DNA of 64,000 bases, from NCBI GenBank assembly GCA_041862235.1, contig JBGVSY010000015.1:11866-75865 (forward strand). The letters run 5' to 3'. The notes below the pieces were generated by a model that worked only from the letters and a program-made list of their open reading frames with translations, was not told where the DNA came from and searched no databases. Source of the stretch: Nitrososphaeria archaeon (GTDB taxonomy: Archaea; Thermoproteota; Nitrososphaeria_A; Caldarchaeales; JAVZCJ01). This document shows positions 33,676-57,631 of the stretch, one piece after another (the stretch's first letter is position 1; every line of letters starts with the position of its first letter). The position numbers were made by a program, and so were the translations under genes.

Positions 33676-33792
33676 GGTCTGGGCCTCTTTGGCTTTGTGT
33701 CTTGGAGTGAAGAATAAGGATTGCTAAAGAAGATCAGAGCCGCGAGAGTTATATCTCGAGATGGTTCGGCTCATGACGGAACGACGACGACG

Positions 33793-36291
33793 ATGAGCAC
33801 CGACGCCTCAAGGGATCAGCCAAGGAAGCTTTTCCTCCTATCCGCAGGCTACAATGGTATAGTAGGGAAGGCCTACCTCAAGTTACTCGATCCCAGGCGC
33901 CAAGAGATCGTCATTTGGAACGATCCAACCGGGCACCAACCTTTCTGCTACAGCAGAGAGAGCGTGGAGAAGCTCAAACAGGATGAACGGCTGACTCAAG
34001 CCGGAGCAATCGGATTCCTTAGAGAGAGCAAGTTCGACCTGATGGAAGATAGGCCGATAGAGGTTACGAAGATCGTAGCATCAGATCCACTTGCTGTTGG
34101 AGGAAAAGCAGGCTCCATAAGAGAGTTCATCGAAGCCTGGGAAGCAGACATACCGTATCATCTAAATTACATCTATGATCGTGGTCTCGTTTGCGGAATG
34201 CCGTACAGGGTCCAAAAGAACGATCTTATGCCCCTAGTCGCCGACAGAAAACGCATTAACTCGCTAGTTGAGAAATTGTTTGTTCAGGAGCCCGACGACG
34301 AGAGGAGGGAAATAAGAAACTGGATGCTGTTGCTGGAGGCCGACCAACCGGAGATAAAACACGTTTCCTTGGACATCGAAGTCGTTTCCCCGGTCTCTAC
34401 CAGGGTTCCCTCACCAGGAAGAGCGGAAGACCCAATAGTCTCCGTCGCCCTACGTGGTTCCGACGGGCTCAAAAAAGTCCTCATGCTGAAGAGAGATCTG
34501 GGGGGCGATGTCCTGTCGGGCCTCCCCTTCACTGTTGAACTGTACGAGAACGAGAAGGATCTACTCAAAGAAACCTTCAACACAATTGAAAGCTATCCGA
34601 TTGTAGCAACTTTCAACGGAGACGACTTCGATCTTCCCTACCTGAGAAATCGAGCAGAAAGAGTCGGTGTAGAGAGGTCGGCAGTGCCCGTTCTGGTCGG
34701 CAGACAGGGAGCGTCGCTGAAGAGAGGAATACACCTCGATCTTTATCGACTCTTCTTCAACAAGTCCATGCAGATATATGCCTTTAACAACGCCTATAGG
34801 GAAAACACCCTCGAAGCCGTTGGTCAAGGCGTTCTGGGCCGAGGCAAGGTCGAGATCGAGAAACCAATTGGTCAACTGAACCTGAGAGAGCTCGCGTGCT
34901 ACAACTTCGGAGACGCTGAACTGGTTTACAGTCTTCTCTCATATCACAACGACCTCATCCTGAGGTTGCTTGTTGTGCTGTGTAGGATCAGCAAATTGAC
35001 AATAGAGGATGTCTGCCGGCAGGGTGTGTCTGGCTGGATAAAGAACCTCCTGTTCTACGAGCATAGGGCACGGGGCTATCTTATCCCAAGATCAGACGAC
35101 ATACTCAAAGTGAAGGACGTCACAAGTACGAAAGCGATCATCGAAGGCAAGAAGTATCGAGGAGCGATAGTTGTCAAACCTGTTCCTGGCATGCACTTTG
35201 ACGTGACGGTCCTTGATTTTGCGAGCCTCTACCCCTCGGCACTCAAGGAATGGAACCTTAGCTACGAAACCGTAAGGTGTCCACACCGCGATTGCAGGGG
35301 AAACAGGGTGCCAGAGACGAGCCACTGGATCTGCACGAAGAGGAAGGGCTTGGAGAGTCTGCTTGTAGGATCGCTGAGAGACATCAGGGTTGCTTGGTAC
35401 AAGCCTAAGAGCAGCGATCAGCGTCTCCCGGAGGAGACTAGGATATGGTATTCCGTGGTCCAAAGGGCGCTCAAAGTCTTCCTGAACGCCAGCTATGGGG
35501 TCTTTGGAGCCCGGATCTTCCCCCTTTACTGTCCTCCTGTGGCTGAGAGCACAGCGGCAATTGGAAGACACGCCTTCAGCAGGGCTATAGAAAAAGCCAG
35601 AGAACTCGGGGTGGAGGTCATCTACGGCGATACAGACAGTATCTTCCTAGAGACGGACGACAAGAACTTGGTCAGGATGCTCATCGACTGGGCTGCCCGC
35701 GATCTGAGGTTGGATCTTGAGATAGACAAGGTATACAGGTATGTTGTCTTCTCGACAAGAAAGAAGAACTACCTCGGCGTGACCACGAGCAATGTGCTCG
35801 ACGTCAAGGGATTGACTGGGAAGAAGAGACACGTCCCCATATTCATAAAGAACGCCTTCGACGATATGGTCGAGAAACTGAGGAACGTCCGTACACCGGA
35901 GGATCTAGCTGAAGCCAGACGACAAATAGAGGACATACTAAGGGATTGGTATCACAAGTTGAACCGCAAAGAGTTCAGCCTCGAGGATGTGTCATTTCAC
36001 GTGATGATGAGCCGCGCCCCGGAAAGATACGTCAAGACAACCCCTCAACACGTCAAAGCCGCAAGAAAGCTCCAAGGTCAGGGATTGAATGTTTCTGCAG
36101 GGGATATCATAAGCTTTGTGAAGACAAGAGACCGAGAAGGTGTACAGCCTCTTCAGCTCGCACGCAAGGAGGACGTAGACGTCGATAAATACATGGAGTA
36201 TCTCGAGTCCACCTTCGACCAAGTCCTTGATGCCCTTGGCCTTGACTTCAAGTCAATCAAGGGTATAAGCAGCCTTGAAGACTTTTTCTAG
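33793..36291 (+). CDS. polB: Family B DNA polymerase
   Basis: Exonuclease motifs are LDIEV, FNGDDFDLPYL and YNFGDAELVY. Polymerase motifs are VLDFASLYPS, KVFLNASYGVFG and YGDTDSIF. I prefer ATG 33793 to the track's TTG 33721, because TTATAT lies about 35 nt upstream. Confidence 0.9.
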   Translation: MSTDASRDQPRKLFLLSAGYNGIVGKAYLKLLDPRRQEIVIWNDPTGHQPFCYSRESVEKLKQDERLTQAGAIGFLRESKFDLMEDRPIEVTKIVASDPLAVGGKAGSIREFIEAWEADIPYHLNYIYDRGLVCGMPYRVQKNDLMPLVADRKRINSLVEKLFVQEPDDERREIRNWMLLLEADQPEIKHVSLDIEVVSPVSTRVPSPGRAEDPIVSVALRGSDGLKKVLMLKRDLGGDVLSGLPFTVELYENEKDLLKETFNTIESYPIVATFNGDDFDLPYLRNRAERVGVERSAVPVLVGRQGASLKRGIHLDLYRLFFNKSMQIYAFNNAYRENTLEAVGQGVLGRGKVEIEKPIGQLNLRELACYNFGDAELVYSLLSYHNDLILRLLVVLCRISKLTIEDVCRQGVSGWIKNLLFYEHRARGYLIPRSDDILKVKDVTSTKAIIEGKKYRGAIVVKPVPGMHFDVTVLDFASLYPSALKEWNLSYETVRCPHRDCRGNRVPETSHWICTKRKGLESLLVGSLRDIRVAWYKPKSSDQRLPEETRIWYSVVQRALKVFLNASYGVFGARIFPLYCPPVAESTAAIGRHAFSRAIEKARELGVEVIYGDTDSIFLETDDKNLVRMLIDWAARDLRLDLEIDKVYRYVVFSTRKKNYLGVTTSNVLDVKGLTGKKRHVPIFIKNAFDDMVEKLRNVRTPEDLAEARRQIEDILRDWYHKLNRKEFSLEDVSFHVMMSRAPERYVKTTPQHVKAARKLQGQGLNVSAGDIISFVKTRDREGVQPLQLARKEDVDVDKYMEYLESTFDQVLDALGLDFKSIKGISSLEDFF

Positions 36292-36450
36292 CAGGAATAC
36301 TTTTGCGCGCGAAGGCTATCAACCATTACCCAAGCATCATAGCTTGCATGGCCGGAAGTCCGACGGTCTATTGGTCGCCCGGCAGAAAAAGATGGGTGAC
36401 CAACCAACGGGGGAGTTCAACCCCTTCACGTTGATTGATCTGTTTTTTCT

Positions 36451-36549
36451 CTACTTCTTCTTTCTCTTGCTCTTCTTGGCGGGTTTTTTCTTAACCGCTC
36501 TCTTTCTCTTCTTTGGTGCTTTCTTCTTTGCTGATTTCTTTCTGGGCAT
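36451..36549 (-). CDS. 32-aa extremely Lys/Arg-rich micro-protein (not in the supplied ORF track)
   Basis: My translation is MPRKKSAKKKAPKKRKRAVKKKPAKKSKRKKK*, which has 17 Lys, 4 Arg and no acidic residue. The ATG is preceded by GGAGGT with a 6-nt spacer. It is the only plausible gene in an intergenic stretch of nearly 700 bp. The sense-strand alternative is a poly-Phe/Leu ORF. Confidence 0.45.
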   Translation of the reverse strand: MPRKKSAKKKAPKKRKRAVKKKPAKKSKRKKK

Positions 36550-36982
36550 GTGTTTACCTCCGCACTACAGGTCTTTTTCTCGTTTTTTGTGCAGTGCTTG
36601 CAGCTTTTAAGATTTGTGGTTCAGCATTTGTCGAAGCAATCGCGTGATTAAGGGTAAGGATTCGGTTGAATCACTGAGTTGGCTTCGAGCAAATGGGAGG
36701 TGGATTTTGATCCAGCTGGCCACGAGTTCCTTCTGAAGAATTGTCACTTCGTCTCAGCGATTGCAGGAGGAATCTGGAATATCTTTAATGATGTTTTTGT
36801 CACCCTGAATCAAAGTCTTCTGACCACGTCAAGGGGAATGTCGGCTGAAATATGACTGGATCGTTGTGGGTTTTCATACCTTGCTCGAAGATATTCAGCT
36901 TGGATTGATCGCGATCGATCAGCCAGTGAAGATCACTCACGTTTCCAACTCTTCGCTGAGCACCAATCTTAAAGAGAGGTTG

Positions 36983-37951
36983 ATGGGACAATCTATCATG
37001 CAGCGGTTGGCGGTCATAAAGGGACCTCAGCTACTTTCCTATGATTTCCCTCGCAGCCACCCTTTGAAGTCTGATAGGGTCGAGATATTTTGGAGAATGC
37101 TCGAAGAATCAGAAGGTGAGCTGGGGGGCTCCATCATCTTCGTCGACCCTGTTGTTGCAACTGACCAGCAGCTACTACTCTTCCACGAACGTGATTATCT
37201 ACGGTTTGTTCAGCTGATGTCGAATAGAGGCGGAGGCCTTCTAGACTACGGGGATACCCCAGCCTTCAAGGGATGCTATGAAGCAGCTGCATACTGCGTC
37301 GGATCTACGCTCAAAACTATAGAGATGGTTCTCAACAGGGAGGCCGACCACGGCTTCAATCCGGTGGGAGGCTTTCACCACGCAAGAAGAAGTGCCGCTG
37401 CAGGCTTCTGTATATTCAATGATGCCGGTGTCGCAATAGAATACCTCCTGCGCGTGAAAGGCATCTCTCCTGTTGCATACGTGGATATGGATGCTCATCA
37501 TGGTGATGGGGTCTGCTATGAATTCTACAGCAACAAGAAACTCATATTCGTAGACATTCATCAGGATGGCAGATCACTCTACCCTGGGTCTGGCTTCGCG
37601 TATGAGACGGGAGAGGGCGAAGCTGTGGGAACAAAGCTGAACACTCCACTTCCAGCGGGATCCGGTGACTCGGAATTTAAGGAAGCCTTCGAGAAGGGGT
37701 TGAGGTTCCTTAACCAGTTCTCGCCTCGTTTCATCCTCTTTCAGTGCGGAGCTGACGGCCTCGAGGGAGATCCCCTCACTGGCCTGAGGTATTCGGAGGA
37801 AGCTCATGCTTTCGCTGCGGCTCGCCTGAACGAGATCGCGCACAGGCTCTGTGAGGGCAGGCTGGTGGCTCTGGGCGGGGGAGGCTACAGTCCTGACGGT
37901 ACAGCAAAAGCCTGGATGCAGGTGGCGAAAGCCCTGATTCAGCCCCCTTGA
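36983..37951 (+). CDS. Histone deacetylase-family (HDAC/AcuC-like) lysine or polyamine deacetylase
   Basis: Motifs are GGFHHARRSAAAGFCIFNDAGVA, VDMDAHHGDG and GGGGYSP. ATG 36983 is preceded by GAGGT; alternatives are ATG 36998 or the track start at 36866. Confidence 0.8.
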   Translation: MGQSIMQRLAVIKGPQLLSYDFPRSHPLKSDRVEIFWRMLEESEGELGGSIIFVDPVVATDQQLLLFHERDYLRFVQLMSNRGGGLLDYGDTPAFKGCYEAAAYCVGSTLKTIEMVLNREADHGFNPVGGFHHARRSAAAGFCIFNDAGVAIEYLLRVKGISPVAYVDMDAHHGDGVCYEFYSNKKLIFVDIHQDGRSLYPGSGFAYETGEGEAVGTKLNTPLPAGSGDSEFKEAFEKGLRFLNQFSPRFILFQCGADGLEGDPLTGLRYSEEAHAFAAARLNEIAHRLCEGRLVALGGGGYSPDGTAKAWMQVAKALIQPP

Positions 37952-38677
37952 TTGAGACAAACCCAGCTTGGGTTGCGGCTGTGGAAAGTAGGGTAAATGC
38001 GAGGCCGATCGATCAGGAAGACGTAGAAGTAGGCTGGAGGGAGGGGCGAGATCGTACACACAGTCAGGAGCAACGGCCAATGCGCTTCGTTCTTCAGGCG
38101 TTGCAAGAGTTTTGGATAAGAACAGACTATTTTACCGGTATCTCCTTTTCCAGCCATCTTTTGGGCGCCGTAATCTCGTGCACTATGGCATTGAAGGCCG
38201 CTCTCGTCTTATCTGGATCTACGGCGCAAGGTAGCTTTAGGGTGAGACGATACTCGGAGCGGCGCGTCTCGCCCAATCTGAAGCCAGGGCCGGCTCTGAC
38301 GATCGACCGAATCTCTCTGACATTCTCTGACATCTCCTAGAGACATACCGGAGATAGCTCGATCGATCCTTGCTCTTCCACATCGGATCCATCAACCGCT
38401 GCGTCCTCCTAATGAGGTCTCTCATATGTATCTTAACCTCATCGGCGGTCTCGAAAAGAGGAGACACATCCACCTCAAATCCTAGAATCCTTCCCGCAAA
38501 CCGTAGAAGATCGATCGAAGATGACCTCGGACTCTTGCTCGCAATCCAGTCGATCAACTCAGATATAAACGGGCCTCAGCACAGAAATTGGTATCGGAGT
38601 TTCCGAGAAAAATGCCACGAAGTCAGTCTTCGCGTACAGCCTCATCAACTCCTTGATGCCGCTCTCGTGAACCGCAA

Positions 38678-38689
38678 TCGATCGATCGA
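38678..38689. repeat. TCGATCGATCGA 12-nt palindrome in the unassigned 37.95-38.74 kb region
   Basis: Read directly. It is one of five GATCGATC copies within about 700 bp. Confidence 0.9.
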
Positions 38690-38739
38690 GCAGTCAAATA
38701 CTGGAAGCGCAGCCAGCGGCATTGTTGGACAAAAAGAAT

Positions 38740-38889
38740 CTATCTGGGAAATTCACGTCTGTAGTGAGGACATTCAACATTACTGCAATGCAAGACTGAT
38801 GAACATCCAGCACATGAGAACACTCGCGAGTAACTAATGTCAAAAGTCCTCCCACAGGAAAGACAGGTCACCAGCCTGCTATTTGACAT
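38740..38889 (-). CDS. Possible 49-aa C4 zinc-ribbon protein
   Basis: MSNSRLVTCLSCGRTFDISYSRVFSCAGCSSVLHCSNVECPHYRREFPR* contains C-x2-C-x14-C-x2-C. It is co-oriented downstream of the ATP-grasp/membrane gene pair. There is no convincing SD site. Confidence 0.3.
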   Translation of the reverse strand: MSNSRLVTCLSCGRTFDISYSRVFSCAGCSSVLHCSNVECPHYRREFPR

Positions 38890-38938
38890 TCTTTGTGGAT
38901 CTGAATGACAGCGGCATTCATCGCTATGTCCCAGTTTC

Positions 38939-57358: not shown

Positions 57359-57631
57359 ATGTCCGAAACACCGGTTGTGTTTATCGGTAGAAAACCTGTG
57401 ATGAACTACGTTCTCGCCTGCATGACTGCCCTTCAATCGGAGGACAAGAAGGCTATCGTGAAGGCAAGGGGTAGAGCAATAAGCAGAGCAGTCGACACAG
57501 TGCAAATCTTACAGCGTCGGTTCTACAAGAACCTCAAGATAGGCGAGATCAAGACGAACACGGAACAGCTGACCGGGGAGAACAACGTCACCCTGAACGT
57601 CTCAACGATCGAGATCACCATCTCGGCTTGA
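57359..57631 (+). CDS. albA: Alba (Sac10b) DNA/RNA-binding protein
   Basis: VFIGRKPVMNYVLACMTAL...IVKARGRAISRAVDTVQIL...STIEITIS. ATG 57359 has GGGAG 9 nt upstream. The track starts at TTG 57308. Confidence 0.85.
   Translation: MSETPVVFIGRKPVMNYVLACMTALQSEDKKAIVKARGRAISRAVDTVQILQRRFYKNLKIGEIKTNTEQLTGENNVTLNVSTIEITISA

Follow-up and report, generated by a model that had tools for sequence, protein, structure and literature searches.

The window analysed here is a stretch of 64,000 nucleotides on contig 15 of a MAG that represents an uncultured, heat-loving member of the Caldarchaeales (Aigarchaeota), an order of the Nitrososphaeria; the MAG amounts to 1.68 Mb in 142 contigs and is about 90% complete. 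Within it, a family B DNA polymerase gene (polB) ends with a stop codon at position 36291 and is followed, after a gap of 691 bp, by a gene for a deacetylase of the HDAC/AcuC family. The ATG of the deacetylase gene is most likely that at 36983, which is the NCBI call and corresponds to the 322-aa product on record; close relatives of this protein bear the database name acetoin utilization protein AcuC. Because polB and the deacetylase gene carry consecutive NCBI protein accessions, nothing is called by NCBI between them. The minus strand of the gap holds an open reading frame (ORF) that can be recognized both by reading the sequence and from the ORF list (Table 1). Its ATG lies at 36549-36547, separated from a preceding GGAGGT by the six nucleotides aaacac, and its TAG lies at 36453-36451. 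The starts of this micro-gene and of the deacetylase gene are 434 bp apart.

Table 1. Features of the polB/HDAC junction, alleles of the micro-gene and related small genes at other loci. Positions without a prefix are those of the window.
Feature	Position or locus	Strand	Description	Basis
polB	33721..36291	+	Family B DNA polymerase; converges on the micro-gene	Pfam DNA_pol_B, DNA_pol_B_exo1
T-run	36385..36393	-	ATCTTTTTC, past the stem-loop	Invariant in the alignment
3' stem-loop	36398..36440	-	Outer 12-bp stem GAUCAAUCAACG / CGUUGGUUGGUC, variable inner stem	RNAfold
Micro-gene	36451..36549	-	32 codons plus TAG, product MPRKKSAKKKAPKKRKRAVKKKPAKKSKRKKK	Sequence, ORF list, seven in-frame alleles
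Putative 5' leader	36550..36602	-	Conserved CGAGAAAAA and Shine-Dalgarno-like GGAGGT (36561-36556), 6 nt before the ATG	
Promoter-like block	36603..36642	-	Contains AAATCTTAAAAG (36615-36604)	32 of 40 columns invariant in six alleles
HDAC/AcuC-family gene	36983..37951	+	Deacetylase gene, divergent from the micro-gene	Pfam Hist_deacetyl, E = 1.6e-78
Allele, 32 aa	This window, L131		MPRKKSAKKKAPKKRKRAVKKKPAKKSKRKKK	
Allele, 45 aa	L085, L086		MPRKKAGKKKARKKPKRKAKKKAKKKPKRKAKKKPKKRKARRKKK	
Allele, 27 aa	L088, L089		MPRKKAAKKKAPKKKRAVKKKPARKKK	
Allele, 27 aa	L090		MPRKKAAKKKAPKKRAVKKKPARKRKK	
Allele, 28 aa	L091		MPRKKAAKKKAPKKKRAVKKKPARKRKK	
Allele, 22 aa	L093, L094		MPKKKAAKKKAAKKKTTKKRKR	
Allele, 22 aa	L132, L133		MPKKKAAKKKAAKKKTAKKRKR	
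Second poly-Lys micro-gene	Own genome, contig C28:11503-11595	+	MCMSEKKSKARKKAPKKKVAKKKKVAKKKK	Six-frame genome scan
bS22 gene, Georgenia and Xylanimonas	L079:5552-5650, L073:5377-5487	+, +	A few hundred bp downstream of an HDAC-family gene	
Poly-Glu micro-ORF, genus g2	L174 about 1030-1125; L175 about 925-1015; L176 about 2685-2775	-, -, +	MEEEEGFEEEEFEEEEEFELEEPEEEEEEEW	

The predicted product contains 17 lysines and four arginines, which together make up 21 of its 32 residues, and it has no aspartate or glutamate. An earlier note on this DNA had described a Shine-Dalgarno-led, acid-free Lys/Arg micro-ORF of exactly this kind, set in a gap of nearly 700 bp between polB and an HDAC gene some 430 bp away. 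Every element of that description is right, the distances being those measured above and the Pfam matches agreeing with both flanking assignments. Its comparison of the peptide to histone H1 tails and protamines also holds as far as composition goes, since the product is an acid-free polycation. A TATA-like box that it placed about 60 nucleotides upstream is present and lies inside a conserved block (see below), and the alba gene that it reported in the window is found at about 57374-57622 (tblastn, with an approximate query sequence). The antisense poly-Phe/Leu ORF at 36275-36610, which the same note took for nonsense, was likewise rejected here, because its start, end and relative frame differ between the window and a relative (L085).

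Small ORFs of such composition are rare in this genome. A six-frame scan of the 1.68 Mb found 28 ORFs of 15-90 amino acids with at least 50% Lys plus Arg, and three of them are dominated by lysine. This rarity and the in-frame conservation in seven alleles described below place the micro-ORF beyond what chance would produce. The micro-ORF appears to be a genuine, self-contained and conserved small gene and not a chance frame, and it is very probable that this gene is translated.

Relatives of the locus were reached through the HDAC protein cluster and by contig look-ups with exact proteins. Seven distinct alleles were found at the same polB/HDAC junction in close relatives with HDAC proteins that are 81-100% identical. 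The earlier note had proposed conservation at this junction as a check on the ORF, and all seven alleles are in frame; among them, no frame-disrupting change that leaves the purine tract in place was found. All seven share an ATG behind (G)GAGGTAA and a TAG followed by AGAAAA. Between these fixed ends the length varies from 22 to 45 codons, and every length difference is a multiple of three. Indels of this kind are also expected from slippage at AAG repeats without selection.

The fact that a purine tract is open proves nothing, because a stop codon needs a T, and the phase of the tract was therefore tested. The ATG frame encodes no Asp or Glu in any allele, and frame +2 encodes 6-21 of these residues. 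A start codon in frame +1 is present in L085 only and none is conserved, which led to the rejection of an Arg-rich ORF in that sense frame as a gene. The seven alleles contain 135 all-purine codons in total, and the counts of G at positions 1, 2 and 3 of these codons are 1/27/83. The non-purine interruptions of the tract (five in the window allele, nine in the 45-codon allele) encode Ala, Pro, Ser, Thr, Val or Gly and always restore the Lys frame. No slips of one nucleotide in the A6 runs were seen among the alleles.

The micro-ORF was also considered as the pseudogene tail of a larger gene. This was rejected on the grounds that the upstream spacer has deletions and holds no conserved ORF. The closest species-level genomes within the family are distant, with polB 61-62% identical, and no such ORF was found at their polB or HDAC loci. 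The contigs of three close-relative assemblies (L092, L095 and L096) end exactly inside the poly-Lys tract, which suggests either length heterogeneity in the population or assembler trouble at a low-complexity repeat.

Six of the junctions were aligned and their invariance was profiled in windows of 40 columns. The best-conserved parts of the 691-bp gap, equal to the ends of the flanking genes, are the promoter-like block, a block comprising the Shine-Dalgarno-like sequence, the start codon and the first eight codons (36564-36527; 31 of 38 columns invariant), and a block comprising the stem-loop and T-run (36446-36369; 23-26 of 40 columns invariant). The spacer toward the deacetylase gene has deletions of 60-70 nucleotides in L085 and L093 and carries no conserved ORF. 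Within the promoter-like block, a TATA-like CTTAAAAG at 36611-36604 lies 62 nucleotides upstream of the ATG. The longer element AAATCTTAAAAG, 55-66 nucleotides upstream of the ATG, resembles a BRE/TATA box and could function as the promoter. The GGAGGT, to judge by its position and conservation, would act as a Shine-Dalgarno sequence; by a crude count, this motif is not enriched ahead of ATG codons genome-wide, and Shine-Dalgarno use is not general in this genome.

Downstream of the stop codon, the predicted energy of the stem-loop is -25 to -31 kcal/mol in four alleles (RNAfold). Its consensus fold has an energy of -21 kcal/mol and includes one compensatory pair, in the inner stem. The stem-loop is followed by ATCUUUUU, and an A-run at 36441-36450 after the stop codon can pair with the U-run. 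The stem-loop and T-run together are likely to mark the transcript end, possibly as a bidirectional terminator shared with polB. A simple terminator scan does not flag the T-run because it begins five nucleotides past the stem. Two other readings of these signals were rejected. The palindrome occurs once in the whole genome and is therefore not part of a repeated mobile element. The micro-ORF does not qualify as a leader peptide or regulatory uORF, as nothing but the stem-loop, the T-run and the convergent polB lies downstream and there is no gene for it to control.

Searches for known families returned no relatives of the micro-ORF. It has no Pfam match at E <= 1, no NCBIfam match and no PDB match at E <= 10, eL41 and bS22 included. 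Related tiny polybasic ribosomal proteins are within reach of the PDB search, since a 32-aa actinobacterial bS22 ORF from L079 matches bS22 chains with E = 3e-10, and eukaryotic and Pyrococcus eL41 queries retrieve 21-30 eL41 chains. The window has no Rfam match at the gathering cut-off and no tRNA according to a tRNA scan. Longer members of the order-wide family described below have no match in Pfam, NCBIfam or PDB searches, and an exact look-up of ten family members in a collection of 15 billion proteins found none of them. A protein search of 41 genomes returned the micro-ORF itself only, low complexity defeating HMMER, and a homology search with a 48-aa relative scored nothing. Proteins of the Pyrococcus eL41/eS32 type were sought with PF05162, by tblastn and by genome search. 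No credible one was found in the source genome or in any of 76 Caldarchaeales genomes; the only match was weak and lacked a start codon, and the search is insensitive for a query of 25-36 residues. A full-text search of the literature found no description of archaeal poly-Lys genes of this type.

Examination of 65 loci with HDAC-family genes turned up only one other type of basic micro-ORF beside such a gene. This is bS22, at two Micrococcales loci, an assignment confirmed by comparison with solved structures of the ribosome. The adjacency of bS22 and HDAC-family genes in Micrococcales is a coincidental parallel and lends no support to a pairing of the archaeal micro-gene with the deacetylase.

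The six-frame scan of the source genome revealed a second poly-Lys micro-gene, on contig C28, flanked by genes for an adenosine-deaminase-like protein and a phosphoribosyltransferase. A AAAGTTAAATA box lies upstream of the micro-gene, and a hairpin and a run of seven T residues lie downstream. In relatives (L134-L142), this gene is kept at the same site, in frame and with 22-44 codons (MCMAEKKRRSPKKKVKRKAKRK, MCMAEKKPKPKKKVAKKPAKKKAAKKK, MCRCKSKKKKTSKKRKKKPAKKKKKAVKKKAKKKPARKRKKKRK), and its AAAGTTAAATA box is conserved.

A third basic small ORF, MGWKKPSVARPKAKHKVKRKPKTKPRRKVRKTGKPKVKSKKRRA, is found on contig C10 of the same genome (1183-1314, minus strand), and GATCGATC motifs are clustered downstream of it. 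This palindrome is far more frequent than expected and is concentrated in intergenic DNA. There are 690 copies in 1.68 Mb against about 26 expected, with 4-21 for other 8-nt palindromes, and 44% of the copies lie outside ORFs of at least 120 amino acids, which take up about 90% of the genome. The copies are often in tandem; examples in the window are at 36900-36915 and 37952-38938.

Lys/Ala-rich ORFs were found in most Caldarchaeales genera by blastn with ORF DNA and with a degenerate N-terminal pattern, complemented by our own six-frame scans (L104, L108, L110, L115, L118, L124, L127, L143-L153, L157-L160, L163, L167-L169 and L172). These ORFs are positional orthologues. They are arranged head-to-head with a stand-alone tRNA_bind gene (Trbp111/CsaA-type, PF01588); beyond this gene comes one for a class IIb aaRS, and the ORFs are bordered on their other side by genes for a membrane protein and for eL33. 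Such an ORF is carried by 21 of the 30 Trbp111 loci examined. By genus, it is present at 8/8 loci in g7 (Geocrenenecus), 3/3 in g15, 6/6 in g10, 2/2 in g8 and 2/2 in g13, and at 0/6 in g6 and 0/4 in g3; it also occurs beside the Trbp111 gene in two further genera, g5 and g4. The order-wide ORFs encode 24 to about 100 amino acids, mostly with a short Pro/Ala/Glu tail at the C-terminus, and have a conserved canonical GAAAATTTTTATA box (TATA) upstream and T-rich ends.

The window ORF shows the same M-(P/A)-(K/R)-K-K start and K/A-rich body, and it stands alone. The pattern ATGCCNARRAARAARN6AARAARAAR matches the window ORF, four Geocrenenecus genomes and one g10 genome, where it falls on the N-terminus of a larger protein, and has zero control matches. 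The window ORF ends in KKK and is without the Pro/Ala/Glu tail and the tRNA_bind/aaRS synteny of the order-wide genes. At the Trbp111/AspRS locus of the source genome itself (C120), no Lys-rich ORF was found. The low complexity of these sequences precludes a real homology test between the window ORF and the order-wide family; the micro-gene is a gene of the same kind, and orthology cannot be established. It is one of a set of poly-Lys mini-genes found throughout the Caldarchaeales.

An acidic counterpart of the poly-Lys genes, in which a purine tract is read in the Glu frame, is conserved in all three genomes of a sister genus (g2). This poly-glutamate micro-ORF comes after GGAGGAG and a TATA-like box and is located about 540 bp downstream of a Trbp111-like gene. 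An equivalent was looked for in the source genome and was not found.

The elements of the polB/HDAC junction would make up a stand-alone transcription unit of about 200 nucleotides, consisting of a TATA-like promoter, a short leader with a Shine-Dalgarno sequence, the 32-codon ORF, the stem-loop and the T-run. Translation would yield a peptide of about 3.7 kDa that lacks acidic residues, carries a net charge of roughly +21 and is probably disordered. Such a peptide most likely works by bulk charge, binding and neutralising intracellular polyanions, and its most likely targets would be RNA (tRNA or rRNA) or DNA. As a function based on charge would need no particular fold, its length would be free to vary, and slippage by triplets within the AAG/AAA tract could alter the number of codons freely over the range observed, provided that the frame is retained. 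The most plausible function would be to coat nucleic acids or to bind rRNA or tRNA. RNA is slightly favoured over DNA because of the translation-flavoured neighbourhood of the order-wide genes and the precedent of Arc1p (PMC11286949). The full statement, that this is a real small gene with a product that binds polyanions, is held to be probable, with less assurance than the existence of a translated gene.

A narrower role in translation is one alternative. The peptide could be a ribosome-bound micro-protein, a lineage-specific analogue of eL41/eS32, bS22, bL37 or bTHX, or else a general tRNA/rRNA-binding cofactor of translation. Its size and charge fit the tiny polybasic ribosomal proteins, and the failure of an admittedly insensitive search to detect a Pyrococcus-type eL41 in 76 genomes of the order would leave room for an eL41-like niche. 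The order-wide relatives adjoin tRNA_bind OB-fold, class IIb aaRS and eL33 genes, and in Arc1p a Lys-rich middle domain is needed together with the OB domain for tRNA binding (PMC11286949). This explanation is nevertheless unlikely. No match to eL41 or bS22 appeared under conditions in which both controls were readily found, and the window copy adjoins no translation gene. Furthermore, a length that varies two-fold in close relatives and about four-fold across the order, with scattered prolines, is unlike a buried, stoichiometric ribosomal helix. Slightly less probable again is a model in which the poly-Lys mini-proteins of the Caldarchaeales act lineage-wide and in trans as a Lys-rich RNA-binding appendage, together with the Trbp111-type protein and the class IIb aaRS. 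In that case they would correspond, as free-standing archaeal proteins, to the Lys-rich domain in Arc1p and to the Lys-rich extensions found on eukaryotic synthetases, and the window copy would be a dispersed, tail-less paralogue. The earlier note had suggested a link of the peptide to its neighbour, as a chromatin or nucleic-acid coat whose acetylated lysines would be deacetylated specifically by the divergent HDAC/AcuC enzyme, in the manner of Alba regulation. The adjacency is retained in all alleles of the genus-level clade, the genome provides a chromatin context of one histone and three Alba genes (tblastn, with approximate queries), and a lysine-rich peptide is a chemically possible target, so that its acetylation is possible. 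However, the proposed pairing does not extend beyond that clade: the C28 paralogue and all order-wide relatives lie elsewhere, and none of the other archaeal loci in the set of 65 with HDAC-family genes has a Lys-rich ORF. The 430-bp spacer toward the deacetylase gene is poorly conserved, and its large deletions in relatives make a regulatory region shared by the two genes unlikely. There may be a chromatin role, to which nothing points specifically, and a dedicated enzyme-substrate pair is improbable.

Two remaining explanations dispense either with the peptide or with its proposed targets. In one, the ORF would be incidental and untranslated, and what is conserved would be a small purine-rich RNA or else a DNA element, for instance a slippage-prone tract with a palindrome. 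It is true that the tract has no stops in any of the three sense frames, that AAG slippage alone gives length changes in multiples of three, and that the contigs of three assemblies break within it; the invariant outer 12-bp stem of the palindrome could also reflect a DNA-binding site. Set against these points are an ATG, a Shine-Dalgarno box and a TAG that are exactly conserved around a variable interior, interruptions that all keep the Lys frame, and the lack of any acidic residue or single-nucleotide slip in the A6 runs. The same architecture also recurs at two independent loci and in many genera, and there are no Rfam matches. An untranslated element is accordingly very improbable. The chances are slimmer still that the peptide binds some other polyanion and not nucleic acids, as with the polyphosphate granules with which Pseudomonas AlgP, a Lys/Ala/Pro-rich H1-like protein, associates (PMC9239181). 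Charge-driven binding is indiscriminate among polyanions, but no polyP-related genes were seen adjoining any copy of the micro-gene.

Genes that are so short and of such low complexity are dropped by gene callers, and the poly-Lys set of the Caldarchaeales appears never to have been annotated. The features used here offer a comparative way to tell a true poly-Lys gene from a purine tract, namely conserved ends, a variable interior that stays in frame, and a frame that is free of acidic residues. If these genes are highly expressed, as the canonical TATA boxes found across the order suggest, their products could be among the major polycations in the cells of thermophilic archaea. They would then have a bearing on how RNA and DNA are stabilised at high temperature, and could have one on the origin of the lysine-rich tails and appendages of eukaryotic proteins of chromatin and translation.

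The genes for the tiny polybasic ribosomal proteins eL41/eS32, of archaea and eukaryotes, and bS22, of Actinobacteria and others, are themselves often missed by gene callers. Like them, the micro-gene stands alone, falls in the range of 25-40 codons and encodes a product in which about two of every three residues are Lys or Arg and acidic residues are all but absent. Unlike eL41 and bS22, the product lacks a helix motif containing Trp or Met, has prolines and is highly variable in length. An eL41 protein is a single rRNA-embedded helix of about 25-37 amino acids, whereas the alleles described here have 22, 27, 28, 32 and 45 amino acids, and there are three prolines.

The lysine-rich H1-like proteins of bacteria, such as chlamydial Hc2/HctB, Pseudomonas AlgP and the PAKKA tail of mycobacterial Ku, and the C-terminal tails of H1 itself share with the micro-gene product a low complexity in Lys, Ala and Pro that includes AKKK and PKK units. 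In Hc2, a DNA-binding protein rich in Lys, length varies with repeat number as repeats are gained and lost (PMC2848022), and the window gene resembles it in its composition and in its length variation by multiples of three. Lysine-rich H1-like bacterial proteins bind polyanions by charge (PMC3553676, PMC9239181). Unlike these proteins, the micro-gene product is archaeal, is 5-10 times smaller and has no globular or other domain.

Lys-rich N-terminal extensions are also borne by eukaryotic class IIb aaRS, as tRNA-binding appendages. In contrast to yeast Arc1p, the poly-Lys part of the Caldarchaeales system is a separate gene and not a domain, and the window copy is not beside tRNA_bind or aaRS genes. 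As in Arc1p, however, a Lys-rich and probably disordered segment is paired with a Trbp111-type OB fold, an association that takes the form of head-to-head genes in most genera of the Caldarchaeales.
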